Assembly (NCBI RefSeq): GCF_024521635.1 | Contig: NW_026250406.1 | Location: forward strand, 1,488,001-1,552,000 | Length of the DNA: 64,000 nucleotides | Direction of reading: 5' to 3' | From: Tricharina praecox | Taxonomy: Eukaryota | Part shown: positions 9,116 through 64,000 of the stretch, one piece after another | How positions within the stretch are numbered: the first letter of the stretch is position 1 | How the letters are laid out: every line of letters starts with the position of its first letter | Made by a program: the position numbers and the translations under genes | Notes under the pieces: generated by a model | The model's database searches: none | What the model was told of the DNA's origin: nothing | Seen by the model: the letters and a program-made list of their open reading frames with translations, nothing else

Positions 9116-9187
9116 AGGTCCTACCCGGAGTCGAACCGGGATTGCCGGAATCAGAATCCGACGTGCTAACCATTACACTATAGAACC
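9116..9187 (-). tRNA. tRNA-Gln (anticodon CTG)
   Basis: GGTTCTATAGTGTAATGGTTAGCACGTCGGATTCTGATTCCGGCAATCCCGGTTCGACTCCGGGTAGGACCT: cloverleaf, GGTTCGA T-loop, downstream T-run terminator. Confidence 0.97.
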
Positions 9188-13302: not shown

Positions 13303-13374
13303 AGGTCCTACCCGGAGTCGAACCGGGATTGCCGGAATCAGAATCCGACGTGCTAACCATTACACTATAGAACC
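13303..13374 (-). tRNA. tRNA-Gln (anticodon CTG), identical to 9116-9187
   Basis: Same 72-nt sequence with different flanks and a downstream T-rich terminator. Confidence 0.97.
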
Positions 13375-22900: not shown

Positions 22901-24300
22901 CTCGTCCTGCGGAGCCCACCGATACATCGGTTAGCCCCGACAAAATATCGGGGCTCCCAGGACCCCGGATGGTGTTCTGTTGATCATTAGGTGAATGAAC
23001 AACAGCAACACACATCGGGTATCTCGGAATGAGTGACTGCCAGCCCCGGGGGGCGCGCACCAGATGTACGCGCGGAGAAGGATGCTGAAAAGGACATCTG
23101 GTTGGCGGCTCCAGCCCGAGATGGTGTGGTAGACGCGGGTGGCGAACGTGAAAATGATGTCGGCGGGTCTGCCCTGAAGTCGACAGCGCCGGCGGGTCTT
23201 TCCACCCCGTACCAGTGGCACTGGCTTTGTTGAGGTGGGACGAGAATGTGCAGCCGATGTGACGTATATTCGGTGGCAGTGCCCGGGGGCAGGTAGATGA
23301 TTTCGACAGATCGATGGTGCCAGGGCACTGCCACTATCTCCGCTATTCGACACCGGGGACGGAAATTGATGGTTCCAACATCCTTGATGCAGAGATCTGT
23401 CTCTTCTTGTCTTTCAACCGACGTGACCGTCGAAGCCAATGATGACCAGGAGCTAGGCCGAACGCTTCTTGAAGGCGGGCTCGATGACGTACGCCCACGA
23501 GGGAGAACTCGTGTTCTTCATTGATGGGAGCTTTTGCTCCGCCTCCGAGGCACGTTCTTCTACGCCCGGCAAATCTGGCATGGACAGTCAGGGGGTTGGA
23601 AGACTTTCTTCCAATCTGTGAGTCAAGGTTATTAGCGGGAGAAACGAGTAGGGAGAAGGGGTGACGAACCCCCCCGCAACCAAGCATGGCCTCAATTGTT
23701 TCCTCGATCCAGCTCTGCTCGGCGTTGGCCAAGTTGCCCAGGGGCCCGGAAGGTTTCTTCCGAACTGTGAGTGGCATATGTTGGTGTAGATGAGAGTGAG
23801 GAGGAGAGTGAGACGAACCCCCTTGAAGGGGAGCTATTGCTCCTCCTTCGGGCAGCAAGCACCATGGACATATTGCCGTTGGTGCTGCTACCGGGGATGG
23901 AATTCTTCAACTCTGTGAGTGGAGGTGGTTAGCGGAGAGAATTGTAGGGAGACAGGGCGACGAACCCCCTCAACTAAGCACTAGCTTGATCGCAACCTGT
24001 ACACCCCTCTCCCCTCCAATCTCCTCAAGGCCACCAGAAGAAGCGTTGAATTCTTCTAAACTATGATTCGATGATGTTAGTGGGGAAGACAGTAGGGGGA
24101 GAGTGTGACAAACCCCGAACAAGGGGAGCGTTTGCTCCACCTTCACCGCCACAGTTTTAGTGGCACGCTTCATATCGAAGCGTTCCTTCAGACACTGCTT
24201 GACACTGAGAGTAAAGACTGTTGGTGTGGATAATGGAAGCGAGAGATGGTGACAAACCACTGCAGTTATTGCTAGTTGGCAGCCATCATTTCGGGAATGC
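19950..24300 (-). repeat. Internally multiplied, degenerate multi-exon sequence with repeated near-identical introns
   Basis: Eight 53-60 nt minus-strand introns GTT(C/T)GTC..(C)TAAC/CCAAC..ACTCACAG-like. Block 20200-20640 resembles 23600-24000; ~600-bp tandem duplication 21400-22000 / 22000-22620; three copies of a GAGGCACA..GCAGTAGCG..CTCGGA block. No intact ORF. Confidence 0.75.
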
Positions 24301-24329
24301 CCTCAGCATATGAATGGATTAGGACAAAG

Positions 24330-25560
24330 TTCCAGTTGGCTAAGGAGAAAAGCAGAAAGAATGAAGCATGAGTAGGAGGAAGTAAGAAGATTGTTGTGAA
24401 GAGAGGTGAGTAAAGAAGAAAGGAGGAAAAGTAGGGAGGGAGGGGGGTTCTTATAGAAAATCATGGAGATTTGGCCGACATCGTGGGCAAGCGCGCACGC
24501 ACAATCGTGAATTTCCGCTAGCGGCAGCGAACGTTTTGACATAGTATTGTCCGCGTGATCCAATTCCGTTACATAGTATCGTCCGCGTGATCGCGAGCAA
24601 ACTTCAAAGTGGTGTCGAGTGAGACTGAGAGTTAGCGCAAGTGTGAGGCATGCGAGCAAAACAAACACGAACAAACACAAACAGCCAGGAGCAAACAAAC
24701 AGCCAGGAGCAAGAAAACAGCCAGGAGCAAACATGCGAATGTTCCAGCAAAGCTCGTCACTCCGTAGGCGCCGCTCAAAAGGTTGACGGTGTTGAAAGTT
24801 AGATCTACAGACCTGAGCAGACGAAACATTACATAGGGGCAAGACACAGGAGGGCATCACGCGCATAGGTAGCAAAACAGAAATACTGGCCTCGAGGTAG
24901 TTATCGGTAGACGTAACACACTAATTCACCCTTCCTACCTCTGCTCTCGTACCGTGACAGCCCGCGGTGCACACGCTGAGAATTATGCCAAAGCACGCAT
25001 ATGTAGAATCGTGCGTACGATGCCATATTCGGTTCCCCCGACTCGCACCGTTTGTCCGACAGGGTCAGAATTGTCGAACTTAAACGTGCGGAAGGCTCTA
25101 GAAGACTCACGATCCGGAAGGGTCTCGAAGACTCACGATCCGGAAGGGTCTCGAAGACTCACGATCCGAAAGGCTCCACCGGGTCGAAGGACCTGGGTAT
25201 CTCCTCCGTAAGAGTATTCTGCCTTGAACAAGACGAACGTGTATATACAGGGCCTCTCTGGCCCGACGAAATAGAGAATCAACCGAACATTATCTATCTA
25301 TCTATCCATCCCTGTCCCTATCATCCATATTCTTGACAAGAATAGTCTAAAGCCAAGAACGTTTCTTCAAAGTGCAGAGGCAACGGTCACGACCCTCGAC
25401 TCCCAACTCTGTATCTATAGACTACGTACGATATCGACTCCAGGAGCGCCAGGATGCATCCACACCAGACGTCTCCTTCCATGTTCCGTGAGCCCTATTC
25501 GGCGCCCTTTGCGGCGTAAGCTCGCTGGGTGCACGAATACCATATAATCGTACACATTTT
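24330..25560 (-). repeat. Dispersed repeat B (promoter-like block), copy 1
   Basis: Co-linear similarity with 40720-41600; contains 19-nt (AAACAGCCAGGAGC-core) and 26-nt (CGGAAGGGTCTCGAAGACTCACGATC) internal tandem repeats; TATA-like motif followed by a pyrimidine-rich tract on the minus strand. Confidence 0.8.
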
Positions 25561-26309
25561 TCCTCCATTGTCAGCGACGGGGGCCCCTTGCGTCGCATGC
25601 TACAGGCAACGCCAGCGATGATGCTTTACATTCTGTATTCGGTCGCAGGGGGTTGGGTTTTTCCTGCTGGCGATCACACGCTCGGCGTGGTATGGGCAAC
25701 TGCGTCGCATGTGCGATGGCTGGCTGAGAGATGTGAGCGCCCGTTTGATGGCTTTGTTTACGGTGGGGTCTTTGGGCGTGGTAGGTTTGGTGCATGTATC
25801 ATACACACCTTGCAGCGTGTTCGAACATTCCGTTCCGCTCGATTGGTAGGAGTGCGCGCAGGTCATGTGCCCGTCTCGCCTCCGGCAGCTAGACTTGATC
25901 GTACATATCACACCTCCGCTACTCCCGACGTACGTGGTAGTAGTAGAACCTGCAGTTGCTGGTAGCCAGAGCAAACACACTCCTGCGGCAGCGAAGAGAC
26001 TTCTGCTCGCCCGCTCAGTCGACAGCAAGGCTCGCACTCCACCAACACAACCGATCGTCTTTGCACACACGCAACAGACAGCGGCTCCCACCACCCTGCC
26101 CCCCCGTCCCCCTTCCCCCCAGCCCAACCCTCCCACCTCTCCCACCTTGTCCCCCCCACGCCTCTCACCAGCTCCCCCCCACCTTCTCCCCCATACCGTC
26201 TTCCCCCACCCCTGTCGAGCGCCGCCACGTGACAGCGACAGCCGTCCCTCCACCGATCCGCCCTTCACCCAGTTCATCAAGGCATTCGCACATCCCACCG
26301 CCTTTCACC

Positions 26310-27755
26310 ATGCCACCCCGCGCCTCGAAAGACGTCAGCACACCCAGCAAGACGGACGCATGGAAGTCGCTACTCCGCTTCACCTCGAGCCGTGCGCGCT
26401 CGTTCTACGCGGAGCACATCCGTGCGCTGATTCGCATCTACGGACTGCGCGGGATCGGCGACGAGAATGGCCTCAGACTTCTGCACGATATCCTGTTCAC
26501 TGATCCTACTTGCGTGAAGCATTTCGCACAATTTCAGCACATGTGGGAGCACAGGAATGAGCGTAAAGGCCCGCACTTCGTCTGGTGGAGCGGGTTCCGC
26601 AGGTTCGTCAGTGACTGCTGCGATAAGACGCGCACTGCTGTTAATGCTATCGCCGTCGAGGCACCGGAGACGGAGGGTGAGAACGAGGGAGAGGCGACGA
26701 CGGTGAAGGAGCCCAAGGTGAACTTCTGGAGTCCGGCGGGAGCCAGCGGCACGATTGCGGGAGGCAAACAGTCCGAGGAGCAGGTTCAAGATCCGGTCAA
26801 GCGTGAGGATAGCGAAGCGCCCGAACCCAAGGAGACGAAGCAGAAGTGGTACCCACTCCCTCCGAAGCTCTTGCCGCCGCCGATCCCCGAGAAGGGCGAG
26901 GCGCCCGGGGTCGCTACACACCTCGTCCTCTTCCCCGCCAGCGTCCCCAGCGCACCCATCACTACCGCCATCGACACCCCCTTCATCGCAGTAATCGTCG
27001 ACCCCGACCGCGACGGCCACCGCTCCCGCCACGGCATCCCAGACTGCTACGACCTCTTCGACATTTACGCGCGGCGGGCGCTTTCGTCGCTCCCCTCACT
27101 TAGCATGCAGTGTCTCTTCGACGCCGTGTCCGCGCTCTGCAGCACGCGCCGCGCGCCCCGCGCCTTCTACGGCTGCGTCGTCCAGCCGCTCGAGACCTCC
27201 GGCTCCGGCTCCATCACCGACGACCGCGGGAACATCAACGCCGCCGACGAGGCGCTCGCCCGCAGCGTCGGCGCGACGTATAACTTCTCGTATACCAACG
27301 ATACCACCCTGCTGTGGAACGACAGGACGGTCGGCACGTTCTTTTCCCTCGCTACGTACGCGCCGCTGTGGGTCATCGTCGTTCTGCGACGGGATCCGAT
27401 CGCGGGCCGCGGGGATACCCCTCCAAGGGGAGCGCAGGTCACGTTCACGCCCACGGGCAAGCTCATCGTTGCGCCGGAGCTGCCGCCCGCTCCGCCAGTT
27501 TGGAAGAAGCAGAAGATGTACAGGGATATCGAGCATGTCGGCGAGCGGATCCGCAGGCTGCAACAGGAGTCCAGACGCTTGGAGGAGCAGGCGCAAGAGT
27601 ACGGCTACGACGAGGATTTTTGTTTTCCACACGAGCCGGAGTATGGGCCTGGATTCAGCAAGGAGGAGCATCGCAGACGGAAGAGGCGCAAGATTGAGAG
27701 CAAGGCTGTGGTGGAGGAGCTGTGGGAGCTGAGGAAGGAGGCAGAGGACGAGTAG
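26310..27755 (+). CDS. Hypothetical protein (481 aa from the ATG at 26310), probably nuclear
   Basis: Long single-exon ORF with GC-rich third positions, good start context (caccATG) after a C-rich leader, C-terminal coiled-coil and basic NLS-like RRRKRRK. No recognised domain. Confidence 0.8.
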   Translation: MPPRASKDVSTPSKTDAWKSLLRFTSSRARSFYAEHIRALIRIYGLRGIGDENGLRLLHDILFTDPTCVKHFAQFQHMWEHRNERKGPHFVWWSGFRRFVSDCCDKTRTAVNAIAVEAPETEGENEGEATTVKEPKVNFWSPAGASGTIAGGKQSEEQVQDPVKREDSEAPEPKETKQKWYPLPPKLLPPPIPEKGEAPGVATHLVLFPASVPSAPITTAIDTPFIAVIVDPDRDGHRSRHGIPDCYDLFDIYARRALSSLPSLSMQCLFDAVSALCSTRRAPRAFYGCVVQPLETSGSGSITDDRGNINAADEALARSVGATYNFSYTNDTTLLWNDRTVGTFFSLATYAPLWVIVVLRRDPIAGRGDTPPRGAQVTFTPTGKLIVAPELPPAPPVWKKQKMYRDIEHVGERIRRLQQESRRLEEQAQEYGYDEDFCFPHEPEYGPGFSKEEHRRRKRRKIESKAVVEELWELRKEAEDE

Positions 27756-30306
27756 AAGAGCGGTGGTGCTGGTGGATGGCATGGGCATTGGAGAATTTGA
27801 GATGGAGGGCTGGAGCAGATTACGTCATGGCACTGTTTTACCACGAGTGGAATCTGAGCGAGATCATGCGAAAAGAGAATCTTAGTAGTTGTTTGTACGG
27901 CTTTTACACAGTATCAAGTATCTACATGTGAGCGGCGAGAGTGCAGTGAATCGGTGATTAGTTATACTGGGAAACGTGTGTGCACTGCGGAACTGTGGGA
28001 CAGTGATGTCTTCCCCGCACAATCTGCAAACCAGTTGCCCACCTCCGGTGCCCGGAGATCGCCTGGCGATCATTAAAAGCTTATTTCGACAGCAGGCTTT
28101 TGATTTTTCCACGCGTCAAGGTATGCATAGTTTGGGGACGACTACGGTGAGTCGGGACTCGGCGGGTAGGTGCACGTGCGGTGTAAGTGGGACGGATAAA
28201 TGAGGACGGTGCCAGGCACGGTGGCTGGAGTCGCTTAAGAGACGAGGTTGAAAGAGGGAGGAAATGGGTGAAGCCAGAGAGCAGATAGGCGGCAAGCGAC
28301 GCGGAGAGATGGGGGGGCCAATGCCGTATGCGGGAGGACAAACAGTGAGGTAAACGATTAACTCACTCGAAGCCAAAAATCACAGCGGCATCGAGGTACC
28401 TGTAACCCCAGTCACGGCCAAAGTAAGTAGTGTGGCGATCCCGACTTAGGACGTGCGATTCATTTCTTCGAGAGAGTTGAAAAATGGCAGCGAGTGCGCG
28501 CGATGAATGTGGTTGCATCCAGCCACCGACCAGGTGATGACGTCAGCAGTCCGTATGCACGTGCAAACAACCGACGACCGTAGCCGCGAAGCCACTCTCA
28601 TCGCTATCTAGACCGTCTCCTCTCCACAACTATTTTGCAACCGTCCAGAAGCCTGCCGTATCCGGTGCGGAGGTGCGGAATATTTCCCGACTCCCGAAAA
28701 TCAATCGTGCGCGGGAGATTCAACGTGGCGCAACAATTCAGGCTGATCCTGATTCCTGACGCAGCCGGGAGTATGTCGGAAGAGAGCGGATTGGATTTTG
28801 GGCTTCGCTGTCACCGAGATACCTACTAGTAGTGCACGTACTCTAGATAAGCGAGTCCTGTGATCACCTCACTGGGGGGCCAATTCGAACTGTGTAGACG
28901 GACAGTCGCACCCGCGACCCGACGGGCCGGAGACATGATCCGCCTCTATCCGCCTCTATGGCACGAGATGGCGATGGCGATGGCGATTGTTTCTCTATGT
29001 TGGTGTGAGGAAGGGTGTCTCTCCGTAAATAGGTCAGCGCTGTGGTGAGTCGTGACGTCACGTGTTGTTCGTGGCACGCCTTGGCACTAATTTCCGCGAA
29101 GTACGAGGCGAGGGAGGCGAGGCCAGGCGAGGCAAGGCAAGGGTACGACACATCCGCTGGCAGAGACAGAGAGAGAGATCGTCCATTGACGAAAGCCCCA
29201 GCGACGACATAGAACTACCGATTACAGCGCCAGCCACTACTTCGATATCTATGTCGTTCTTCACCGGCAGCAGGCACGCCGCGCTGCCGGTACGCATCAC
29301 CGGCGACCGCAACCCTATCCCCGCCATGCCAAGCTGCCAACCCACTTCCGCATCACAAAGCTTGGCTTTCCAGACTCCAGCCAAGTTCCAACTATTACTA
29401 GCGTCTCCCCGCTTCTCGCGAGACCCCCGAAGCCACCGAAGCTGGGCCGTGGCCTGTCGTACCGACTACCGAATCGCATTGAGAGACCAGAGTCTGATGT
29501 TCCAGGGGATGCAAGGGGGGCCCGGATCAGAGAGACATCGACCCCACTCAAGTGCCGAAGTGTAATTGAGAGTCGATGCCAAGCGTCGGTCGGTCGGGAT
29601 ACCTGCTTGCTTACGGTAACAAGGAGCGCGGTGCAATAGCGGGTTACCGGCGGAAGCTCACGCTGGGTTGTGGCGAAGAATACGGCCAAGATTTAGGTGA
29701 GTCAAGATATCGTTGCCACTCTTGCAGAAGTCGCAGTCTTTCACTCGCGATTCGGGCTGTTTCTCTGAGCAACAGAACCTCCAACTGAGCCGTTCCTTAC
29801 AGATGCTATTCATGGGCACATCGCATCTGGTCATTAGTTACGCCGGGCTGGGGTGCCCCCTTCCTTCTGCAGCGGCGACACCGCCGTATCCGGCTGCATG
29901 CGGCGCCGAGCTCGTGTGGGCGATTCCGCCCATGCGCCCCGTGCGACGTGAGCGCATATGTACTAAGCCTTGCATATACCCAGCCAGCGAGCCAGCGAGC
30001 CGTCCCGCGGGCCGGTAGTTGGCGGACAATGCAGAGGCGAGTGGAGCAGGCAATATAGAGTACCAGCCTCGTGTTGGATTTGATGCTGCCACTTGACCGC
30101 ACGGAATACGCGTTGGTATTGTGCTGGAATAGCTTGGGAGCCGGCAGAGGGGTATATGTACCCACCGCAGCTCGCAGACGAAGAGGCGGATACCTTCCAC
30201 CTCCTCCACCCTCACCCTCACCAACGCATACCGCACACCTCCCCATCCCCACCACGCACTACCACGCACTCCTCCTCACCCCACCACGCACCCACCACCA
30301 CACACG

Positions 30307-30738
30307 ATGCAATCCCTCCACACACTCCTCCTCCTCATCTCCGCCGTAGCACTCACCCTCGGCGCACCCTCAGCCCGACCTCGAGGCACGATCCTCCCGA
30401 ACGAGTGCACGTCGGGCTGCGCCGCCGCGGTCTCCTGCCTGGCCTCATTCCCCGAATCCTGCCTCTGCTGGAACGCGGCGATCGCACGGTGCGCAAAGCA
30501 GTGCAAGCAGAAGCCGGCGCCGACGCCGGAGAACTGCAGAGTCAAGCCTGCGCCTCCGCCCACAACACCACCGAAAGATTGTTTTGCAGAGTGTCAGGGC
30601 GGACAGGCGTGTGTTCTCATCTGGCCACAGAGCTGCTATTGCCAGAATGGGATTAATCAGAGGTGTGCGGAGATGTGTGGTGTTAAGGGCCCGCCTGCGC
30701 AGGAGTGTCCGCCCCTGGAGGAGCCAGCGGTAGTGTAG
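30307..30738 (+). CDS. Small secreted Cys-rich protein with two 8-Cys repeats
   Basis: Signal peptide MQSLHTLLLLISAVALTLG; two repeats C-x3-C-x5-C-x4-P-x-SC-x-C-x-N-x5-CA-x2-C...C joined by a Pro-rich linker. Confidence 0.85.
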   Translation: MQSLHTLLLLISAVALTLGAPSARPRGTILPNECTSGCAAAVSCLASFPESCLCWNAAIARCAKQCKQKPAPTPENCRVKPAPPPTTPPKDCFAECQGGQACVLIWPQSCYCQNGINQRCAEMCGVKGPPAQECPPLEEPAVV

Positions 30739-31026
30739 GTGGGAGATGGTAGACGCGGCGAGGATGCGGGGTCACGGCTGGGCGGGGGGGTATTTTTCTT
30801 CGATTTGTTTTTTTTAATGCGCTTTTTCAGGGGTGATGTCGACGTCGATGTCCCTCGGTATCCACTGTACTGGAAGTCTGGGGAAGTCTGCGGTGATTGG
30901 ATTGTGCTGCGGATGTGGTCGGAACTGTGGGGTTACCGGGATATGGTCATTGGTCATTGGTGTATGTACGACAGTATGAGTACGAGTAGCAATCAAGAAT
31001 GCTTGGCATTATCGCCTCGGAGCTGT

Positions 31027-31199
31027 GGTGGTTTTGATGGTTTTGATGGTTTTGATGGTTTTGATGGTTTTGATGGTTTTGATGGTTTTGATGGTTTTGA
31101 TGGTTTTGATGGTTTTGATGGTTTTGATGGTTTTGATGGTTTTGATGGTTTTGATGGTTTTGATGGTTTTGATGGTTTTGATGGTTTTGATGGTTTTGA
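31027..31199. repeat. (GATGGTTTT)n minisatellite
   Basis: About 19 tandem 9-nt units, nearly perfect. Confidence 0.97.
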
Positions 31200-32149
31200 A
31201 CATATTGGCTCTCATCGTGAAATAAGGTTCGCTGCTGCAACTCGGCCTCGGTAGAGCTGGTACGGGTGTCGACAGGCCCGGGAGCACGCGGGAGGCGACT
31301 GCTTGACACTGACAGTGCGATGGCAGGCCTGGGGACCAGGGGTGCGCATCGTCACACGGTGCTGTACGACGTAGACAGAGGTAGAATACGAACCGGGTGT
31401 GGACACTGGTCGGAGCTGTGATAAATATAATCCATAACACTGCCCACGATACGGTAACTCCGGCTCTCCGAGTGGTTGAGGAGAATCACGAGAGTTGCGC
31501 GACCTGATCTAAGACCGGAGGTGCCGGCTGCCATCATTGGTCGCGCTGTGGAGTGCTACGTAGTACACATGGTCCTCTGCTCGTATTCTGATCGTGACTC
31601 GTCACTCGTGAGCACTGAGCATAGCCACAACGACCACCACGACCATCGGCAATCGTCAGACCTCAAGAAGCGAGAGTTGAGAATCGAGGATCGAGAAGCA
31701 AGCTCATAGAGTCGCGGGGGAGAACGACAACCTCCAGGTCCTAGCGGGGAATCCTCGCATCGCGCACACGAGCACATGACGATGAAAGCTGCCAGCCCCG
31801 GCTCCCGGAAGGGCCGAGGATAGGAATGCCCACCTTCCAGGCTTCGCTTGACTCTGGTGTGCACGCAACGTCGCACGGACTGTCGGACGCACCATGCCTT
31901 GTTTCCTTGGCTGTCACCTGTGCGGCGTGCTGCTTCGCAGCGAACATTCCCTATACGAGCTCAGGAGTCAGAACTGCATGCGCCGGCTGCATCCACAACT
32001 ACGTCGTGTGGAGTCGTTGACGACTTGATTTCTCAGTTGAGGGTATCTTCGTAGTTACTATTGAGCCGCTGCGATACACTGTTAAGTCAACCACCCTTCT
32101 GGAAAGTGTTCATGATTCGTCTTTCATGTACACACGAGTTCGGGACTCG

Positions 32150-32480
32150 GGAGTGCATGCTCTGCGCGGGAGCGGGACCCATCACCGGTTCTCACCCAAC
32201 AGTCACTGGTGCGGCGATAAGAGGGTGAAAAATCTGGTCGGACACGGCGGGTCTGTGGAATATGTTAAATTAGCTGGAGCTCTGTCCTGCTGCATCGTGG
32301 AGATAATTCCTCTTTCATGTACATACCAGGTCGGGTGTGCATGCTCCGCCTACGAGCCGGGACCCATCACCGGTTCTTATCCAACCGTCGCCAGTGCGGC
32401 ACGATGAGAGGAGAAATAACCTGGCCAGACACACGATAAGGGGGTACAATACGTCAAATTGCAGCTGGAGCTTCGCAGAT
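32150..32480. repeat. Diverged tandem duplication (~185-bp period)
   Basis: GGGACCCATCACCGGTTCT..CCAAC..GTGCGGC..GCTGGAGCT occurs twice. Confidence 0.7.
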
Positions 32481-33898
32481 AGTGCATACATGTATCCAGC
32501 TGGAAAAAAAAAGCGCAGCTCTTCACTTTTTTTTGGCACCCGACGAGGAAACTCCGAGTGCTTGCCTATTAATCCACGATGCAACACCATCCTCCATTCT
32601 TCGTACAGACCCAGCCAAGAGCTGAGTGCAATCGGATTATCAGAACCGCCGCGACACCCCTAATGACAAGACGTACAGGACGATGATTCGATCCGCACAC
32701 GGAACCTTCACAGACCGCCCACCCGCGGCCGGCCTTTGAACAAAGTATATACTTCGAAATCACCATTGCTGCCATTGATAGTTATCACCGCTGAGTCGTA
32801 GCCGCCCCCATCTCTCACTACTGATCAAAAACGATAAGGCAAACAAGAGATCAATCGCTGTAACTAGCATGTCGACGATCACCACGGGTTCGCAGCCTCG
32901 CACTCTAGTCATCACACTAACTCAGGTGCTGCCGACGAAAATATCGTAGCCACAATACAAGTACAGTCATTTTCGCATCTCCGCCTTCATTTATCCGCCT
33001 TGACTCACCTATCCGACGTGCGAGCATCACCGACTCGCACTCAGGACCTCCGGTTCTACCGGTTCTTCCAGTCCTTCCAGTCCTTACAGATCCGCATTCA
33101 ATCCTGGGTGGTCGGCCGTCGCGTGACCTGTCGCATCCACCAAGAGTCCACCAAGAGTCCACCAAGTCCAACGAGTCGATCGATCAAGAACCAAGAGTCG
33201 ATACCGAACCTCTCTGGGGCCGGGTCACTCTGCGACCGGCCTTAGCTCCCATCACATACGTTCCGGCATTCGCCACCCGTCTTCGGCCCGTAGTCCTACG
33301 ACTGACTCCCAAGATCCCGGAAATCAAGTACTCTACCTTGAATACGGGTATTCTCCCATAGCACGTTTCACCTAGACAACGCATGGTAGATAGCGATCCC
33401 TGCCGGCTATCTGGGGTATGCAGTTCGTATCATAGAGTGGGTGTTACCGGGCTGCTGGAGTTGGAGGGATATATAGGTATCCTGTAGGCATCACCGGAGG
33501 TGCAGCTGGCTGGGGATGTCAGGCGGTGTGTCATTATGTCTGCAGTGGTTGGGTGATGGTTCATGGTCCTCGAGCACCGCTGTGCGCAGTCCTGCTCATC
33601 CACCCGCAGCCTCCGGTGCTTCCGTCTATATCCATGGGTGCGTTGCGTGGGATGACCATGATGGTCAAAATTTCCGTATCCGGGTGTGCCGACTGTCTGC
33701 AAGCTGCAGCCTGTACCAGCTATTTTCACGGGTTTCGCAGGACCAGCTGTTTTCGCGGGTTTCGCAGGTTTCGCGCGTGGGAAAATTCCAGCAGCAAAAT
33801 CGCTCTGTACAATGTACATCACGTTTACATTTCTATGTACTACTTCTCTCCCCGTTAATTATACTCCCGGTCATCCACCCACCGTGCTGCTGGTACGA

Positions 33899-34968
33899 TC
33901 AGAAGAATGTCCTGCCCTTGCGACGAGCGTACTGCTGGGAACCCCGCGCATTGCACGAAGCCACAGTAGGAGTGGTGGTGGCAGTCCGAGCGACCGTAGA
34001 AACCGCAGTCCTAAACGTTACCAAAGTAGACGCCGGCACCGCCGGGACCTGGAAATCATCCGCCTTCTCTACCTCCTCCGCCTGCGTAGCGTTCCTCCCA
34101 TCCTCCCAAATATCCGTCTGCGCGCCATCGGCGAATCCATACAACGGCTCAGCATACGTTGGCGCATAATGGCCGGGCTCGAACATATTCATCCCCTCCC
34201 TATTCATCCAATACATCGGCTGTTTTGCGCCAGTCATACATCCCTCCGTCGCATTATTCTCACACTTCCACGGTGCCGCCGGCCTCCCCAGCTTCCTTGT
34301 ATTCGTCGCGCCGGTAACATTGCACACGAAGGGCGTCATGTACATCTGGTCCGTCCCGCCTGCGCTGGCGTGAATCCAGAACCAGGCGCACATGCAGCGG
34401 TTGTTGGGGCACGCGGGGAGGTCGGGGACGGCGAAGGTTTCTAGCTGGCGCGCCGGAGAGTCGTACTTTACCGAGAAGACGACGAAGTCCGCCGGCATGA
34501 CAGTGTGGGAAGTGGATTTGTACGCGATTGCGAGTGCGGACCCCGCGACATCAAGGCGGGAAGGCGCGTGCATGTTGCCCCAGCCGTTGGTGTTGGTCCA
34601 TGGGTTCGGTGCTGCGGGGGTGGGTTAGCAGGGGAGAGGGTGCGGGAGGAAGGGAGGGAGGTACCTTCGCGAGGGTTCTCGTCGTACCAGCCGTGTCCGA
34701 GCGGTGTGTGGCCCTTGTTCGAGGAGATCATCACGTCGACAGTGGAGTTGGGCTTCAGCTCGAAGACTTCGCCGTCTGCGGGCGGTAGGTCGAGCGCGCC
34801 GTGCCACCACCACTGGTTGAAGGTGTAGTCCTGAAGCGGCTGCGAGGCGTTGTCGCTGTTGATGTTGGTGGGGTCCAGCCCGAACATGGATGTGCTCCAC
34901 ATCGAGAGGTGCCCGTTCACGCCGGCGAGTAACGGGAGCGATGTGATGATGGTGCGAAGGATGGTCAT
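33899..34968 (-). CDS. AA14-family lytic polysaccharide monooxygenase (338 aa; exons 34968-34665, 34611-33899)
   Basis: Signal peptide ending VNG then N-terminal His (HLSMWSTSMFG); PLQDYTFNQWWWHG.LD.PP; second His in GNMH; ALAIAY; DFVVFSV; C.CAWFWIH; QMYM (axial Tyr). One 53-nt GT-AG intron restores the frame. Confidence 0.9.
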
Positions 34969-35994
34969 TTCGAAGGAGCGAGTGAGTGAATGAATGAGAG
35001 AATGAAGGAAAAATGAATGAGTGTAAAGTAACCGAAGTATCGCGCGATAAGAGAGTGTGGTCCGGTCCAGCAGAGCGTAGAGAGCGAATGTCGAGCAATA
35101 TCCCCCCCTCATATCGACGGTCAGAATATGCTTAAATACCTCGCCCAATAAATCGACCAATCTCTCCATTCTCCGAGCTCCGGACGATTGATTTCTTCTT
35201 CGTAGATTAGTTGCTCCTCTCCGCTCCGCTGGTGCATCAGCTCACTAGTAACAGCGATCGTCTCACAGTCCTGGTAATCTCATGATGTCGGCACCGAGAT
35301 ATGCATGTCGCCTACCTTCATAATAACTTGTTTCACCCGACGGTAACTAGCGGAAAGACTGGGCGCGCTCACTTGCCGGGTGCGCATCTTAAGTTGACAA
35401 GGGACAGGAATTTGCGGATCATGCTGTCATCCTCCAATTCTACACGTCTGTAACTTGGAGAACCCGCCGAGAACCCGATCCGAAGTGACACAGCACGAGT
35501 GCAGTGATTGCTACGAGAGCATGGGTGGGGACGGGGATCACTGCGCTGAGACCACCGAGACCACCGAGACCACCGAGACCACCGAGACCATCGAGGCCGC
35601 CGAAGCTACTCCAGCGTTCGATCTCAGGTGAGCACGTGGGCGGCTATGAAACGTCTCGCGGGTGATCTCCGCCCCTCGCCAGAAGCGCCACATGTCAATT
35701 CATAGACGAAGGCTGCGGGTGTGCGGTCAGTGTAGTCAGTTATACCGACCATGGCAATACAAGGGCTCTGCATGGTTCATGTCTACGGTCTCGGTAGCGG
35801 GCTCGGTTCAGCAATGTATCTATTTCCCGTCGCATCACCGCCGCATGCAGCCTTACGGCGAAAGCGGGTCGGGCTGATGGCGCGCGGGGATGAGTGCTCC
35901 ACCATGACTGTCGCGACTCTGCCTATGATATTGTTGTCATGAACGATAGGATAAACAGCGGGGTGTTAATAGCACATTAATACGATCAAGCTAT

Positions 35995-36695
35995 ACAGAC
36001 AGAGTTCGTCATAAACTCTCCGAAACCTCGCATGCGAAGCGCTGGAATCGTCCTGTTTTGTCATAACCACCACTTATTCTGTCACGCAACGACGGGAAGG
36101 GGACATCACTGAGAGTACCACATTCTCAACCAGCCGTCGCGGTCAACCCGAGGCGAAGTGGGAGGCGAACGCTCACATTACAACTCACTCGACTGCCAAT
36201 TCACCACCCGGCACTGTTCGATACCGAATGACGCTTCACTTGATCCAAAACATCACGCAGACTAGGTAGGAGGAAGGAAATTTATCAATTTAACGAAGTA
36301 ATAAGAAAATGCAAGTAATTTGAATACACAGTAAAAAGAAACGATCCACAGTAAAAAGAAACGATACACAGAAAGAAAAAAACCAAAACAATGTTAATGA
36401 GCTGATGCGGTGTAGGTGGCGTTGTGCGGGGTGTTGGCCGCTTCATGGTCGAGATCCATGGCGTCGTTCGGATGAAAGTCGCGAGCGTCGTTTCCGACGG
36501 TCGAACTTTCTCTTGATCGGCATTCTGGGGATGAGGTGCTAAGTTGCGGATGTTTTGGTCGTTGACTTGGGTAGCTGTAGGAATGTTGCTCGCGGGGCGT
36601 CGGGGCGCCAGGGCACGGGCAACCTGAAGGAGTCGAGATCCGGAAGTGAATCCGGATCCGAAGTGCTCCACGGGTAGTACATCCCACTCGGTATA
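35995..36695 (-). repeat. Dispersed repeat C, copy 1 (direct duplicate of ~39450-40195)
   Basis: Co-linear similarity; both minus-strand ORFs share TTPWISTMKRPTPRTTPPTP and LLQVARALAP. Confidence 0.85.
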
Positions 36696-57546: not shown

Positions 57547-58120
57547 CAGGGCTGTAAACCGTCCGTCCAGACGACCGTCCACTAGTGGACGGTAGTCCCG
57601 TCCCCTCCCGTTCCTTCCCGTCTCAGGCAGGCTTTCCAGAGGACTGATCCATTCCGTCTGAAGGATGAAATGCCAAGATACCCGCCAGGTACCTATAGGT
57701 ACCTGATGGCACTAGCGTGCTACGCTGACTACTAGTTGGCCAAGTACCTAGTATATAGCGCGGTGACTACCAACAGAATTTTCAGCGTCGAGCAGAATTT
57801 TCAACGTCGTCAAACAATCGACCTCAGGGGATAGAAAGTGCTAGAAGTAGGAATGGGGATGGTGTGAAAGTTCTATCGTGAGAGACACTGCGGAATGGAG
57901 CCGCACAGCCGCACAGCCACACATCAGTACACCTGCGCCACTGTGTGGCGCCACGCCGCTTGCATTGCCCTAGTGTTCCATTCAATTCCGGGCCCTGTAG
58001 GGTATCCGTCCTCATTTCTCCACCCCGGAAGAGTGTAGTCCTTGGCCTCCTCACTCCGACTAATTTCGTCCTGGGCCGGGCAACCTCAAATACGGACGGG
58101 ATGGATGGTTGACAGCCCTG
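57547..58120. mobile_element. hAT-type MITE, copy 2
   Basis: TIRs CAGGGCTGTAAACCGTCCGTCC / GGATGGATGGTTGACAGCCCTG; imperfect 8-bp TSD ctagtaca / catgtaca; homologous to 18493-18959. Confidence 0.85.
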
Positions 58121-58981
58121 CATGTACATATGTTGTAAGCCACAGGGCAGAATTGTCCGTCTTTAAATCGAGTTGAGCATCTATAGATGGACTGGCCCCA
58201 GTATAGGTGAATCGGATCCAACACCTGGACGGACCAGGCGTGAATTGTATCGCGGTTGCTAGGCTGGACCAGGAGCCGGATAAGCCAGTCCAGTAGTAAA
58301 GTATCTCTCCCTAGGCCAGGCTACCGATACCATTCTGCCCAGTGGGCTGGCCCCCTGTGGTAGATAGGCATGCCGAACCCGAAAACCAGCTAGTAGTATT
58401 ACGCACTCGAGATCACTGCTGGCTATACATTTACAGTATCACTTTGGCACAACGTTTGGCATTACCAATCCCCTTCAACCATCAACTGAATTCAACTATC
58501 ACCAACAAAACAAACATTGCATTCAGCGTAAACGCAGCAGGACAAACTTTTCTTCTGACATCCGAATCCTCCTCTATCCCAGAACCGGTCCTGCGACTCT
58601 ACTATCGCTTCTCCTCTGTGCAGCGTAATTGCACAGCCGTCGCTAGAAGTAATGTTTGGTGGTGAAAGGTGAATCGATGATCTAAAACTGTGGTCGGTGT
58701 AGGGGAACGTGTCGATGCCGCTATGTGTAAAAGTGTAAATTTTTTTTGCCGTAGTACTGTATTTGCGGGGCCGCTGGATGATTAAAGTTACTGTCAGCGT
58801 TGTAAATCCATATTTGAAAGGAGACACTGACCGGAAACGAGCTACGATCTAGGGAACAGCTTGCAGGTCCTCTCGCAGCGCATACACGACGCCGACGACG
58901 AGGAGACTGCCCATTTGGCCTACCATCCCCAGTCAGTCCGTGGAATTGTCAAGTAGGATCAGTGCCTCACCAACTTTAGAG

Positions 58982-59350
58982 TCAACTTCTCATGCCAGTC
59001 TGCCAAGACCACATCCTCATCTCATACAATTGCATCTGCTGATCCCACGTGTCGCGGTAGAGCCTACGCTGGTCGCGGGTACCAAGGACATACCTGGCTA
59101 GTAATAACTGATGCCTCACCCGAGACAGCCGAAGCTCCAGACCCGCTTCATCTTGCTGCGACCGAACCATCGCACTGGAGGTCTGGAGAAGCCTGCGCAG
59201 GGTTGCTAGTGGGACCAGATCGCAGAGCTCTCGGTTCGTCCGTGAGGTGAGACGGAAGTTGAAGAACTCGTCGATTCCATCGAGGGCTCCGATAATCATC
59301 AGTGCGACTTCGGTGGGAACTGGAAGAGCGGGGTGTTCCTGAGGGCTCAT
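58982..59350 (-). CDS. Small protein with an N-terminal F-box-like motif
   Basis: 122 aa ORF, LPVPTEVALMIIGAL..F..FRLTSR; C/A-rich leader; related remnant (LTELALMIIDAL) at ~57430-57470. Confidence 0.45.
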   Translation of the reverse strand: MSPQEHPALPVPTEVALMIIGALDGIDEFFNFRLTSRTNRELCDLVPLATLRRLLQTSSAMVRSQQDEAGLELRLSRVRHQLLLARYVLGTRDQRRLYRDTWDQQMQLYEMRMWSWQTGMRS

Positions 59351-60619
59351 GACGGCGATGTAGGGATGTTGGTCAGATGTGTGTTGGATTGGCTGGCAAG
59401 ATCAAGGTAGTGTCGGGTGGTGATGGACGTAGTAGGTTGGGATGTCGGCAATTGAATGCTGTAGTAAACTATTGGATTTCAGGCAAGATCAAGATTGAGC
59501 GCTGGTCTGTGAACTAACTACAACATAACGCTAGCGCAAATACAATTGAATGGAACGGGTGCCCAAAGCGATCTCCAGAAAGCAGACCAATACCCGCAAT
59601 GAAAGAAATTATGAGAGAGTGCAAAAAGTAATAACCGTGACAACAGTCACAGCCCTACTTTGGAGCCTGCAAATCGACTCTTTTACAGCCACTTTCCCAA
59701 AGTCCCTACCCGAGTACATACAATGCTTGGGGGAGCGCTATCCACATTCCGCAAAAGGAAATCATATTGGGTCCCAAGGGGCTGCAACATCCCAACTCTC
59801 AACGTGCAATCAACACGAGCGGCTGACCACGACCTGTCAGATTACGGCGTTCAAAGCACATGAAGGAAGTGGGAACTCTCCTCATGTCCGCTGTAAGGTG
59901 ATGGTGAAGTTTCAAAGGAGCACTCAGCACTGGTTTGAAGGAGTCCAGGACTCGGTCACGCGAACTGTATGAGGAGGAGGAGATATGTCTCGCTGTCGGG
60001 TCTACTGTCTGGTCCCGGCCACGGGTATCTCGACCAACGGCAGAAATATTGTGTTTCACTAGAAGGGCCGTGACCCGCAGTAGAAGAAGAAGCAAGGAGA
60101 AAAACAGTTATATATCCCTACCAATCCTCCTACCTATCTCATGAAATTCGGCACCATCATCCTGGATGTAACATGTATACTCAGATGAGGATTGGAGTCT
60201 CTTGTTTCAGCTTCTGCTCTCTCCACTGACGAAAACTCGCTGTCAACCGAGCGGATTTCCTTTATTTGACTTTCTTTATCTCAAATGTCGAGCGTCACGT
60301 TCATCATCAATCTCACAAGATTGGATTTATCGTCTCACACATGAAGGGGCTATTAGTGCGACATTCCGCAATCCCGCTGCTCGGATATATTAATTTATGC
60401 ATAAATTACCAATGATGAAATGAAGAAATCAGTAGGATACGCTACATCTTGCAGAAAGGCTTTTGATACACATCCTCGATGATTTGGCTTTTCTTTCTTC
60501 AAGTGAAAACGTGATGGGACGGGCACGTACCGCGCCACATGATGTGGCTCAGTATAGGATAGCGCTCATTCGACAGGGGAGTCACCGGGTCGCTCAACCC
60601 CCGTCCCGGCAACCATTCA

Positions 60620-63600
60620 TCTTCTCTCCTCTTCACTTCACAACACTACAATAGAAAAGAAATTCCGAAAGGTACGATCCACCCCATCCGCATTTAGCCT
60701 CACATGTCACCGGTCTCGGCCGAGCGGCCTTGAATCAACTCTCTACAACATATTTGTTCGGGGGCAATCCAAAATCGATGACTGACAGCCACCAACAGGT
60801 GGTACGAGGGAAGCGATCAAGGCTTGTCGCTGTTTATCCGGAATCATTAGTGATTTATCGCTCAAGTTGAGGAGCGGTTAGCTGCTCAGTTTAATGCGTC
60901 CCATTGATATCCTGTATGTCCCGAGATGGTTTACTAACTTCCCACCAGGTCTACCCTTCTCTACAGCCCGTAGTCACAGCCGTCATCGATGATAAAACTG
61001 GAGCTGAGTCTACCGAGACGTCAGATGAAGCCAGCGCTGGCCGCAAGCCGTGGAGATACGTGAAGAACCCTCTTGCGTAAGGCGAAGTGCTTTGGCTTGT
61101 GAATTGTGGTAATCATCCTCGTTGCATCTTCATACCTGCGTCAATTACTAACGCTTTTAAAAGGTCTACCCTCCTTCAATGTCAATAGTTGTAGCCAACC
61201 AGGGTACCTTTCAGGCAGGGCCGCCAAGCTGTCACAGTATGATGGCGCTTCTTCAGTGCAGCCAATCTAGGATCGGTGAAGAAACTTATCACGAGAGGAG
61301 ACCTGTCATCGCTAGCAAAGTGCTGTACGTAGGAACTGTATCTTCGGGTATCTGTGTTTGTGCAACTTACTAAGAACCGGAAGGTCTACCCCGCTTCGTT
61401 GCCTTGGCCGCAGATACCTCCGTAGTAGTAGTATGACTGGAGGAGCGGCTTCCCAACATCGGTGATTCCGCTCGTTAGCCTGCATGTCTCCGAGGTAGGT
61501 GACGAATAGATGCATCGCATAGTGGGCGAGGAGCTCTGGCTGGTGAAGTGTGGTAAGTATTGTATTTGGGACGGCCATATCGGAAAAAGGTACTAACGTT
61601 GCAGAAAGGTCTACCCTCCTCCACGGCCCGTCGCTGTAGCCACATGCCGTGACATCATGGGAGCTCAGAGCCTGCCGAGGATTTCATCCTCCCTCGGGTC
61701 TGCTTAACCTGAACCTGTCAGGGTTGGTGAAAGCCCACGAGGATCCAGGTGAGAAGTCATGGCCGGCGACGCGTGGTACGTACCCTATGCGTTGGTAGCC
61801 TTTTTTGTAGAAATGTAACCTGTCGACAAGGTCTACTCTCCTTCACGGTACATCCATAGCAGCAAACGTCTGCAAGAATATAAGGTAAGCTCAAGCAGCT
61901 AAAGGTCTGATGATGCCGCCTCTCAACCTCAACCTATTTAGAACACCACATGGAGAAAGGCCACGATTGGAACCGGAGAAGTGTGGTAAATATCCTTTGC
62001 TTTGCATAACCGTTCTAGGACAAGAAACTGACAATTTGATAAGGTCTACCCTTATTTACGGTCCAGACTCCATAGAGGCGGCTGCATCATGCATTAGCAT
62101 GGCGGAAACTTTCAGCCCACCAAAGATCTAACACTTGTTTGGCACAGTGGCACTACATAACCGGAACCTGTGATAGTTGGTAAGGAACCACGGTGATCAA
62201 GGCAAGGAATGATGGCCGGTGAAGTGTGGTAGGTATCCTCTGCTTTGTTATCCCGTTCATAAAACAAACTGACATGGCGATAAGGTCTACCCTCCTTCAC
62301 GGTACATCTACAGCCGCAAAGGTTTGCAAGAACAAAACAGAAGTTCAAGCAGCTAAAGGCTTGATGACGCTGCTTTTTAACCTCAACCTACTTAAAAAAC
62401 CACATGCAGAAAGGTGAAGATTGGAACGAGAGAAGTGTGGTAAATATCCCTTGCTTTGCATGCCCGCTCTTGGATAAAGAACTGACATGTCGATAAGGTC
62501 TACCCTCCACGGGGTAGCGTAGCCGCTTTCACTTGCAAGTACAAAACCGGAGCTCGAGCTGCTAAAGGTCTCATGATGCCGCTTCTGAGCCTCAACCTAT
62601 ATGAAGAATCAAATGGATGGCGGCCAAAGATTATGGCCCGCGTAGTATGGTAAATATATTCTGCTTTGAAAGCCCGTCCTTGAAGAAACCATTAACATGA
62701 CGGTTAGGTCTACTCCCCTTCACGGTGCTAACATCGCCGGAAACCGCTTTAAGAACAGAACAGATGATCAAGCAGCTAAAGGCCTGATGATGACGCTTCT
62801 TAGCCTAAAACCGCTTGAAGAACCAGGTGGAGAAAGGCCAAGATGGGGATCGGCGAAGTGTGGTAACTATCCTTTTTGAATCTTCATACCTGTGAAAAAT
62901 TACTGATTCTGTGAATAGGTCTACCCTCCTTCATGGTCAACAGCTGTAGCCAACTACTGTGACGCGCATGCTGCCAAAGCTGTCAGATCTCGGCTTTTCT
63001 CAATCGCCGATGATTGGGTATGGGTGACGATCCCTATTTCGAGAGACTCGCAGTCATCGCTGGCGAAGTGTGGTATGTAGAAACCCTTACTCGGGTCTCT
63101 ATGTTCGTGCACTGTACTAAAATAGCAAAAGGTCTACCATTCTTCTTTGCCTTGGCTGCAGATACCTGCGCAGGACGACATGAGTGCCGTCTTCCAGATA
63201 TCAAAGATGATGTTGCTCGTTAGTCTGCATCTCTCCGAGGGTCGAAGGTGGGGGACGAATCACCTCGTGATGGGCGAGGAGCTCAGGCCGGTGAAATGTG
63301 GTAAGTATCCTTTTTGAGAGGGCTTTTATGAAAAAAGTGTGTTATCTCTTCAGGAATGTCTACCCTCCTTCACGGTCCATAGGGTCAGCCACCGGCAGTG
63401 GCAAGACGGTAACCCTCAGCCTACCGAAGAAGATACACTCCGTTGGCATTCCTCAACCTGAACCTATCAAAGTTGGTGAGGAACCGCATGACTGATCATG
63501 GTAGGGAATCATGGCTGGCGAAATCTGATAAGTTTCCTTCGCTGTGATTTCCCGTCCTTGCAGAAAACTCACCATGCCGATAAGGTCTACCCTCTTTCAC

Positions 63601-64000
63601 GGTGAATATTAGCCGCTATGGCCATGCAAGTCCAAAACCGGAGCTCGTGCTGCTAAAGGTCTCAAAATGCCGCTTCAAATCCTCAACCTACATGACGAAC
63701 CAAATGGATCCGGGCCAGAAATTATGGCCAGCGTAGTATGGTAAATATCGTCAGCTTTGAAAGCCCATTCTTGAAGAAACCACTAACATGTCGATAAGGT
63801 CCACTCTCCATCACGGTACGTACATAGCCTGAAATATCTGCAAGAAAAAACTAGTAGCTCAACCGGCTAAAAGACTGATGATTACATTTATGAGTCTAGA
63901 ACTCTTTGAAGACCCACATGAAGAAAGGCCAAGTCTTCAAGATAGGGACCGGCGAAGTGTGGTAAGTTTCCTACAGTCTGGTTACGTTTTTGCAGACATC
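60620..64000 (+). ncRNA. Putative spliced non-coding RNA: two unique leader exons then at least 14 tandem repeated exon-intron units, running off the window
   Basis: Exons 60949-61108, 61164-61324, 61384-61552, 61609-61775, 61831-61985, 62044-62228, 62285-62439, 62498-62649, 62708-62862, 62919-63072, 63132-63300, 63358-63527, 63585-63740, 63799-63961 start GTC(T/C)AC and mostly end (G)AAGTGTG-like; separated by 55-59 nt GTA..CTRAC-like..AG introns. No continuous ORF. Transcription is inferred, not shown. Confidence 0.7.

Follow-up and report, generated by a model that had tools for sequence, protein, structure and literature searches.

A tandem array of exon-intron modules in Tricharina praecox as a candidate multiply spliced non-coding RNA gene

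What would keep the signals for splicing in place throughout an array of exons that holds no reading frame? The question is raised by the last part of a 64,000-nucleotide (nt) stretch of Tricharina praecox contig NW_026250406.1 (hereafter the window, meaning the whole stretch analyzed), in which 14 modules, each made up of one putative exon of 152-185 nt and one putative intron of 55-59 nt, lie head to tail at 60949-64000 on the plus strand. Based on the splice signals of the array, the distribution of conservation within its modules and its lack of coding capacity, we propose, with a probability of about 0.5, that the locus is a multiply spliced non-coding RNA gene, in which selection would act on splicing and on a motif of 33 nt that arises wherever two of its exons are joined. 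In the following we set out the evidence from the DNA on which this proposal is based, put forward a hypothetical mechanism, and weigh it against four other explanations of the array.

Splice signals in a tandem array

Each module begins with GTCYAC (Table 1), and the 3' ends of the module exons were set by placing the donor at the conserved ..GTGTG/GTA, where the slash marks the exon-intron border. The related octamer GGTCTACY is present 12 times on the plus strand within the array, and in the rest of the 64 kb it is found once on the plus strand and twice on the minus strand, so the repetition is far above chance. The array nevertheless goes undetected by Tandem Repeats Finder because its copies are too diverged. 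Compared with the sequence outside it, the array gives a single match, 36 nt of CT-rich low complexity, and no intronless (processed) copy of a junction is present in the window, the two halves of the junction motif, joined or apart, being confined to the array. The introns are far more uniform in length (57.1 ± 1.3 nt for the 13 that are complete) than the exons (162 ± 8.7 nt). The array also extends past the end of the window, since a 381-nt contig from sequencing run X2, which comes from a relative that is about 4% different, covers 63841-64000 and then fits the sequence from 62272 onward, that is, a unit resembling module 7. The architecture given in the preliminary description of this DNA holds up on reanalysis: its 14 exon lengths are reproduced exactly, all 13 complete introns fall in its range of 55-59 nt, its period of about 215 nt over at least 14 units corresponds to 14 located starts with spacings of 210-241 nt, and the two unique exons that it placed upstream are indeed free of ATG.

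Table 1. Putative features of the array and its upstream region. Positions are those of the window; intron entries give length, donor, branch region and 3' end, and the period is the distance to the next module start.
Feature	Positions	Strand	Exon	Intron	Exon length mod 3	Period (nt)	Remarks
Pyrimidine-rich tract, putative transcription start region	60600..60650	+					Read from sequence; 36-nt CT-rich match elsewhere in window
Putative unique exon 1	60620..60671	+	60620-60671	60672-60798, 127 nt, GTACGA..GACTGAC..CAG			Splice signals; no ATG
Putative unique exon 2	60799..60876	+	60799-60876	60877-60948, 72 nt, GTTAGC..TACTAAC..CAG			No ATG
Module 1 (own subfamily)	60949..61163	+	60949-61108, 160 nt	61109-61163, 55 nt, GTAATC, TACTAAC, AAG	1	215	
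Module 2 (B)	61164..61383	+	61164-61324, 161 nt	61325-61383, 59 nt, GTACGT, CTAAG variant, AAG	2	220	
Module 3 (C)	61384..61608	+	61384-61552, 169 nt	61553-61608, 56 nt, GTAAGT, TACTAAC, AAG	1	225	
Module 4 (D)	61609..61830	+	61609-61775, 167 nt	61776-61830, 55 nt, GTACGT, GTAAC variant, AAG	2	222	
Module 5 (A)	61831..62043	+	61831-61985, 155 nt	61986-62043, 58 nt, GTAAAT, AACTGAC, AAG	2	213	
Module 6 (D)	62044..62284	+	62044-62228, 185 nt	62229-62284, 56 nt, GTAGGT, AACTGAC, AAG	2	241	
Module 7 (A)	62285..62497	+	62285-62439, 155 nt	62440-62497, 58 nt, GTAAAT, AACTGAC, AAG	2	213	
Module 8 (A')	62498..62707	+	62498-62649, 152 nt	62650-62707, 58 nt, GTAAAT, CATTAAC, TAG	2	210	
Module 9 (A)	62708..62918	+	62708-62862, 155 nt	62863-62918, 56 nt, GTAACT, TACTGAT, TAG	2	211	
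Module 10 (B)	62919..63131	+	62919-63072, 154 nt	63073-63131, 59 nt, GTATGT, CTAAA variant, AAG	1	213	
Module 11 (C)	63132..63357	+	63132-63300, 169 nt	63301-63357, 57 nt, GTAAGT, no branch motif, ends AAT	1	226	Intron-like; broken acceptor
Module 12 (D)	63358..63584	+	63358-63527, 170 nt	63528-63584, 57 nt, ATAAGT, CTCAC variant, AAG	2	227	Exon-like; donor not GT
Module 13 (A')	63585..63798	+	63585-63740, 156 nt	63741-63798, 58 nt, GTAAAT, CACTAAC, AAG	0	214	
Module 14 (A)	63799..64000	+	63799-63961, 163 nt	From 63962, GTAAGT	1		Starts GTCCAC; intron cut by window end

The borders of the modules have the properties expected of spliceosomal introns. A GT donor is present in 13 of the 14 modules, the exception being module 12, and when the donors are taken together with the preceding base they match between six and nine of the nine positions of GGTAAGTAT, which we take to be the full complement of the 5' end of U1, with seven or more matches in 11 of the 14. 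A strict YTRAY branch motif is found in eight of the 13 module introns, and in all eight the branch A occupies position 13 as counted from the 3' end; one-base variants (CTAAG, GTAAC, CTAAA, and CTCAC) occupy the same aligned place in four further introns, leaving intron 11 as the one that has no branch motif. The acceptor is AG in 12 of the 13 introns, intron 11 again being the exception. A loose intron-like pattern gives 16 matches on the plus strand of the array versus four on its minus strand. As a reference from the same contig we used the 53-nt intron of a gene of family AA14 of the lytic polysaccharide monooxygenases (LPMO), which runs GTACCT..GCTAAC..CAG, has its branch A at position 14 counted from the end, and is consistent with the reading frame of that gene. 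Since this intron is of like build, the array introns share the geometry of the host, with the reference being a single intron (n = 1), and the array thus has canonical spliceosomal signals in host geometry. The claim that splice signals are retained therefore stands for all but the donor of module 12 and the acceptor of intron 11, which are lost, and the claim that each unit has a branch site like CTAAC or CTGAC stands in its strict form for eight introns and as a variant for four, and fails for intron 11.

With one of these defects on either side of it, module 12 is probably a dead module that would be passed over and removed within a longer intron of 284 nt (63301-63584). At two positions in its 3' tip, 63516 and 63525, the X2 contig reads C and G, which are nearer to the consensus of the array (one contig, depth 5.4), and the crippled module may be decaying further in the lineage of the window.

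Conservation without coding capacity

Pairwise identity divides the modules into subfamilies A (modules 5, 7, 9, and 14), A' (8 and 13), B (2 and 10), C (3 and 11), and D (4, 6, and 12), with module 1 standing alone. The block formed by intron 1 and modules 2-3-4 recurs as intron 9 and modules 10-11-12 with 61-73% identity, the two introns themselves being alike at 0.73, and the duplications are therefore old. What has been kept since then is distributed very unevenly within a module. Mean pairwise identity is 0.78 over the first 18 nt of the exon and 0.70 over its last 15 nt, and it is 0.56 over the exon interior (shuffled, 0.50 ± 0.02; closest pair, 0.80) and 0.60 over the intron (shuffled, 0.49 ± 0.03). 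In the 71 pairs of modules from different subfamilies, identity is 0.89-1.00 in the GTCTAC columns at the exon start and 0.55-1.00 in the GAAGTGTG/GTA columns at its end, compared with 0.2-0.45 in most others; within the intron the same pairs agree at donor positions +6 and +7 (0.82 and 0.76), at the T and A of the branch (0.89 and 0.73), and at the A and G of the acceptor (0.89 and 0.73). A weak conserved patch in the middle of the exon also persists across modules. Neutral decay or homogenization of whole units would not give conservation as uneven as this, whereas selection on the splice signals and exon tips would.

We considered that the divergence might be that of a fungal repeat altered by repeat-induced point mutation (RIP), and rejected this because the RIP index (CpA+TpG)/(ApC+GpT) of the array, 1.14, is like that of the rest of the window (1.13) and the substitutions among modules, 200 transitions versus 238 transversions, show no transition excess. 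The ratio TpA/ApT is somewhat raised in the array (0.95 versus 0.72).

The coding capacity of the array is that of random sequence. In the spliced product of 2401 nt the three frames contain 40, 30, and 38 stops, versus about 37 expected by chance, and the longest open stretch is 140 codons spanning modules 8-9. A read-through score, defined as the minimum number of stops plus frameshifts found by dynamic programming and compared with shuffles made within exons, is 16 for the spliced plus strand versus 18.2 ± 2.4 for the shuffles, 26% of which score as low as or lower than the observed sequence. The corresponding values are 28 versus 27.2 for the unspliced plus strand and 27 versus 26.2 for the minus strand, and the controls, two regions of the window that do code, give 4 versus 7.9 and 7 versus 11.0. 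Coding on the minus strand was entertained in view of one frame that has no stop across the conserved junction of many modules, and was rejected because the spacer lengths are spread over all phases and shuffled sequence scores just as well. The exon lengths occupy all three phases, and since the commonest class is 3n+2 (eight of the 14), one frame cannot persist through successive repeats; the array does not have the open or near-open frame with consistent exon phase of a repeat-protein gene or a recent pseudogene. The spliced RNA would contain 53 ATGs, the first of which opens an open reading frame (ORF) of 24 codons and the longest an ORF of 128 codons. A Pfam search with 33 ORFs of at least 40 amino acids (aa) from both strands gave sub-threshold noise and nothing above the cut-off. 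Taken with the conservation data, these results bear out two statements of the preliminary description, namely that the array has no reading frame, the stops and read-through scores of both strands being at random expectation, and that donors, branch sites, acceptors, and exon ends are kept while interiors drift, with which the uneven column identities agree. Its description of the interiors as highly diverged is right in that their identity between subfamilies is near random, as is that of the intron interiors, with the qualification that the mid-exon patch survives.

Among 1.84 billion representative proteins, a profile built from the translations of six subfamily A units had two matches at E ≤ 0.001. 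One of these, P0002 (E = 7e-4), is an unrelated low-complexity repeat protein. The other, P0001 (E = 3.8e-13), is the T. praecox hypothetical protein BZA05DRAFT_422978 (XP_051334593.1, 210 aa), and a second model from T. praecox, P0003 (BZA05DRAFT_421631, 217 aa), matches it exactly through residue 136 and diverges from there; the two loci are on separate contigs, of 59 kb and 527 kb. The shared start points to a recent duplication of the 5' part of an array or to a region that was assembled twice. When P0001 is aligned to the window by tblastn, its first match is to module 1, where 15 of 23 residues agree and the window has a stop. Matches follow to a B module (59%, and 12 of 12 at the 3' tip), to the last part of a C module and a portion of a D module, then to an A' module (67%), and finally to where another module begins. 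Its order of units, 1-B-C-D-A', is that of the window, and in P0003 D is followed by an A module, which is the succession of modules 4-5 in the window, with the A-type unit of P0003 best matching module 5. Both models share with the window not only the order of the modules (unit 1, B, C, D, and then A' or A) but also the junction and the exon tips, since they contain AKCG/LPSFT and REVW/STLLHG, which are the canonical junction in translation. As compared at the protein level, they differ from the window in that they are annotated as coding, have about five modules with parts skipped, and begin at a start codon that has no counterpart in the window.

How such models could arise from arrays of this kind is suggested by their structure. 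The start of P0001, MKSQ/RSTLL, would be the end of an exon resembling exon 2 joined to unit 1 at the canonical acceptor, and no ATG corresponding to the initiating MKSQ is present in exon 2 of the window. On our reading the models would stay open by joining the B, C, and D modules at points within them, so that the larger part of these modules is left out, and we view them as probable patchworks made by a gene caller over a non-coding array. Neither has a Pfam family, and for P0001 no look-alike in the Atlas and no structure record were found; no longer relative of it was found, which is weak evidence by the caveat of the search tool itself. Neither protein-family homology nor an intact relative of a repeat-protein gene or recent pseudogene was found, so the intact repeat-protein relative named in the preliminary description as one of the findings that would overturn it does not appear among the 1.84 billion representatives. 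No conserved ORF was detected either, as is typical of a spliced long non-coding RNA (lncRNA) gene, with the ATG of the T. praecox model being absent from the window. Motif scans gave five single chance matches in metagenome contigs and one in a bacterial metagenome-assembled genome, and no arrays.

Searches for an RNA structure or for a known small RNA were likewise negative. Rfam gave no match at E ≤ 1 over 58000-64000. The exons do not fold stably relative to shuffles (mean z of +0.28 on the plus strand and +0.25 on the minus strand), and the z values of the spliced junctions and of the unspliced tip-intron-tip pieces are about 0. Duplex energies are -9.0 for adjacent tips (3' tip with the next 5' tip), -8.5 for tips of the same exon, -9.1 for other pairings, and -10.4 for shuffles, and permutation gives no specific pairing of tips (p of 0.41 and 0.88). 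RNAalifold found no consensus pairs in the 13 introns with 10 nt on either side, and the introns are thus not mirtron-like. Two small-RNA candidates were rejected. Subfamily A interiors contain TGATGA, with a CTGA in the intron, which recalls a box C/D small nucleolar RNA (snoRNA); by eye, however, such an RNA would lack a terminal stem and extend across the donor, and subfamilies other than A do not have the motif. The 3' tip of the exon resembles the A-box of tRNA genes, as judged from the consensus of the latter, but ARAGORN makes no call in the array. Taken together, ARAGORN and Rfam give no indication of units transcribed by RNA polymerase III of the tRNA or short interspersed nuclear element type.

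A proposed mechanism and its rivals

We now put forward a hypothetical mechanism in which splicing itself would generate the functional element of the RNA. We propose that the plus strand contains a gene-like transcription unit with two unique exons followed by at least 14 tandemly duplicated modules of exon and minimal intron, in which two groups of positions would be kept. The first would be read by the spliceosome, and comprises the donor complementary to U1, YTRAY at a fixed distance, AG, and the tightly fixed intron length. The second group would be the first ~18 and the last ~15 nt of every exon, which splicing would bring to abut one another as one motif of ~33 nt per exon-exon junction. 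The mature RNA would then contain at least 13 junction motifs with freely drifting spacers of ~125 nt between them, and it could offer a multivalent platform to a sequence-specific RNA-binding factor or serve as a decoy for it, with the junction motif as the putative binding site. Transcription, splicing at the sites listed in Table 1, and a role for the junction motif are all steps that we infer from the DNA. A stronger form of the proposal, which we hold only tentatively, is that this would be an lncRNA with a functional element that is never contiguous in the DNA, where splicing would manufacture the multivalent array of ~33-nt motifs and the interiors would serve as free spacers. A motif assembled by splicing would explain why conservation is limited to the splice signals and the exon tips. 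Fungal lncRNAs are mostly known as single, poorly conserved transcripts, and we know of no described kind of RNA gene in which a functional motif is assembled at each exon junction.

Several observations weigh against a spliced non-coding RNA gene. Two junctions are broken, one by the loss of the acceptor and branch of intron 11 and the other by the loss of the donor of module 12, and six of the 14 donors have no G at +5 (GTAAAT in four, GTAACT, and GTAATC), donors without this G being weak by consensus. A search of sequencing runs with the stretch returned four soil-metagenome DNA runs, all from one study, and no RNA run. Neither a stable or conserved fold of exons, junctions, or introns nor specific pairing between the conserved exon tips was found. 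A stop-free frame is present in five of the 14 exons, compared with about three computed for chance, and the related arrays of T. praecox are annotated as protein-coding, with products of 210 and 217 aa. These relatives come from one species, and their DNA is roughly estimated, from the 59-67% identity of translations in arbitrary frames, to be ~80-87% identical to the window (~15% diverged), so cross-species support is shallow. Lastly, the window stops within the array, whose 3' flank lies beyond 64000.

The DNA contigs from the runs, which are near-identical to the window in X1 and variant in X2, include none that spans the whole stretch, and among those that were placed none lacks an intron. 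Upstream of the array, at 59872-59924, a segment of ~50 nt is common to several metagenome contigs that have unlike flanks on both sides, with loose ends before 59872 and behind 59912-59924 in runs X1, X2, and X4. This segment has the look of a short repeat that is dispersed, or of a conserved portion of some multi-copy gene.

Two of the alternatives assign the modules to a protein. The array may be the decaying remnant of a protein gene that grew by tandem exon duplication, in which the splice signals and tips were the last parts to erode. We consider this unlikely, although the T. praecox models do read through related modules, subfamily A retains a peptide-like stretch (AAKGLMMPLLSLNL..) in one frame in six units, five exons have a stop-free frame, the 140-codon open stretch spans two modules, and eight of the 14 exon lengths share one phase class. 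That class is 3n+2, however, and cannot hold a frame across repeats. Stops and frameshifts are as frequent as in random sequence whichever frame or strand is read, so any death of such a gene would be ancient, and neutral decay would not have spared the donors (13 of 14 kept), the acceptors (12 of 13), and the position of the branch while the interiors were randomized. Moreover, on our reading the T. praecox model stays open only through acceptors within modules, by which the larger part of the C and D units is lost, and it begins at an ATG that is not in the window. No Pfam family matches, no other relative is present among the 1.84 billion proteins, and no longer relative was found. That the array is instead a real coding locus, from which small and fast-evolving proteins of the kind modeled in T. 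praecox are produced through alternative splicing, is in our view very improbable. The public gene models and the identity of their first 136 residues at two loci could be read in this way, but that identity is probably due to recent duplication of the DNA rather than to selection, the window lacks a counterpart of the ATG and has stops in the same frames (e.g., RSTLLYSP*SQ), and no family, structure record, or look-alike is available for the products.

The remaining two alternatives do without a coding function for the modules. We rate as distinctly unlikely that the locus is a satellite-like DNA array of ~215-bp monomers with boxes that act at the DNA level, in protein binding or chromatin, and that its intron-like look is a relic of an ancestral piece that was duplicated and is not spliced today. 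In its favor, monomer types recur in blocks in the manner of higher-order repeats, the order B-C-D-A being present twice, the metagenome assemblies break up at the array, and the most invariant columns are GTCTAC at the exon start, a sequence not required by the spliceosome. On the other hand, the conserved positions are strand-specific and have spliceosomal geometry, with introns of 55-59 nt versus exons of 152-185 nt, two unique exons with canonical introns lead into the modules on the same strand, and the halves of the junction motif are absent elsewhere in the 64 kb. The copies are not the homogenized, highly similar ones of satellite DNA either, given that even the recurring blocks are just 61-73% alike. 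Less likely still is that the modules belong to a larger gene that codes beyond 64000, either as its untranslated and multiply spliced leader or as some other part of it. It would fit with the continuation of the array past the end of the window and with first exons that lack an ATG, but the 53 ATGs of the spliced sequence, beginning with an ORF of 24 codons, would be hostile to downstream translation, and the T. praecox models end inside their arrays without a conserved coding part, no longer relative having been found. The non-coding RNA gene is therefore the explanation that we favor.

Known systems, the neighborhood, and implications

The proposed gene can be compared with several known systems, none of which it matches in full. 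The hosts of SNORD116/115 and 14q32 have repeated non-coding exons, and like such small-RNA hosts the array would give rise to a non-coding transcript of RNA polymerase II that consists of many duplicated exon-intron modules with exons that lack an ORF, a likeness that is predicted on our side. C19MC is described as a mammalian small-RNA host transcript with conserved, tandemly repeated exons (PMC7692494), and SNORD116/115 and 14q32 as tandem snoRNA arrays (PMC3528689). In these mammalian systems the payload, a microRNA (miRNA) or snoRNA, resides in long introns and the exons are by-products, whereas in the fungal array the introns are minimal, at 55-59 nt, and have no Rfam match or consensus fold, and it is the exon tips that are most conserved. 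Thus, the array has the tandem non-coding exon-intron units of the C19MC and SNORD116 type but not a snoRNA or miRNA precursor in each unit. In its proposed action the RNA would resemble multivalent decoy lncRNAs such as meiRNA of S. pombe, which carries Mmi1 sites, and NORAD, which carries Pumilio sites. With these it would share a short motif repeated many times along a single RNA; their motifs, however, are contiguous in the DNA, while the putative motif of the array would be assembled by splicing and is unrelated to theirs. Genes for repeat proteins with tandem exons resemble the array in the duplication of exon plus intron, and differ from it in that the array has no open frame, mixed phases, and no family match. 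Alpha satellite forms higher-order repeats with a CENP-B box, and shares with the array monomers of ~200 bp, diverged types that recur in order, and short invariant boxes, whereas strand-specific splice geometry, unique leading exons, and the absence of homogenization set the array apart. Our literature searches, with supplements outside their scope, found no fungal locus with such an architecture, and among the papers listed for Tricharina praecox no title concerns the array locus. The earlier remark that its author knew of no described fungal locus of this kind agrees with these searches but has to be modified in view of the two annotated T. praecox models over related arrays.

Elsewhere in the window, the AA14 LPMO gene that provided the reference intron (34612-34664) is located at 33902-35241 on the minus strand and has at least two exons, covering Pfam positions 5-100 and 116-337. 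In the Atlas its ORF belongs to a fungal AA14 cluster with neighbors that are mostly Ascomycota. The only calls made by ARAGORN are two tRNA-Gln(CTG) genes at 9115-9187 and 13303-13374 on the minus strand, which are 4 kb apart and far from the array. The region 20000-36000 has a G+C content of 0.55-0.57, versus ~0.50-0.52 elsewhere, and contains long overlapping stop-free frames on both strands, including a 602-codon frame at 25947-27755 that has no Pfam match. A further ORF of the window, of 330 aa and thioesterase-like, has a single protein match, in ENA, with 64% identity.

The essence of our proposal is that the modules of the array have kept what the spliceosome would read and what splicing would join, and little else. 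As many old duplicates that independently retain their splice signals and exon tips, they would constitute an unusually clean natural experiment on selection in non-coding RNA. In addition, two public hypothetical-protein models are flagged as probable mis-annotations. The array also provides a testable hypothesis, that of an RNA motif which would be assembled by splicing, in an organism, Tricharina praecox, that can be cultured.

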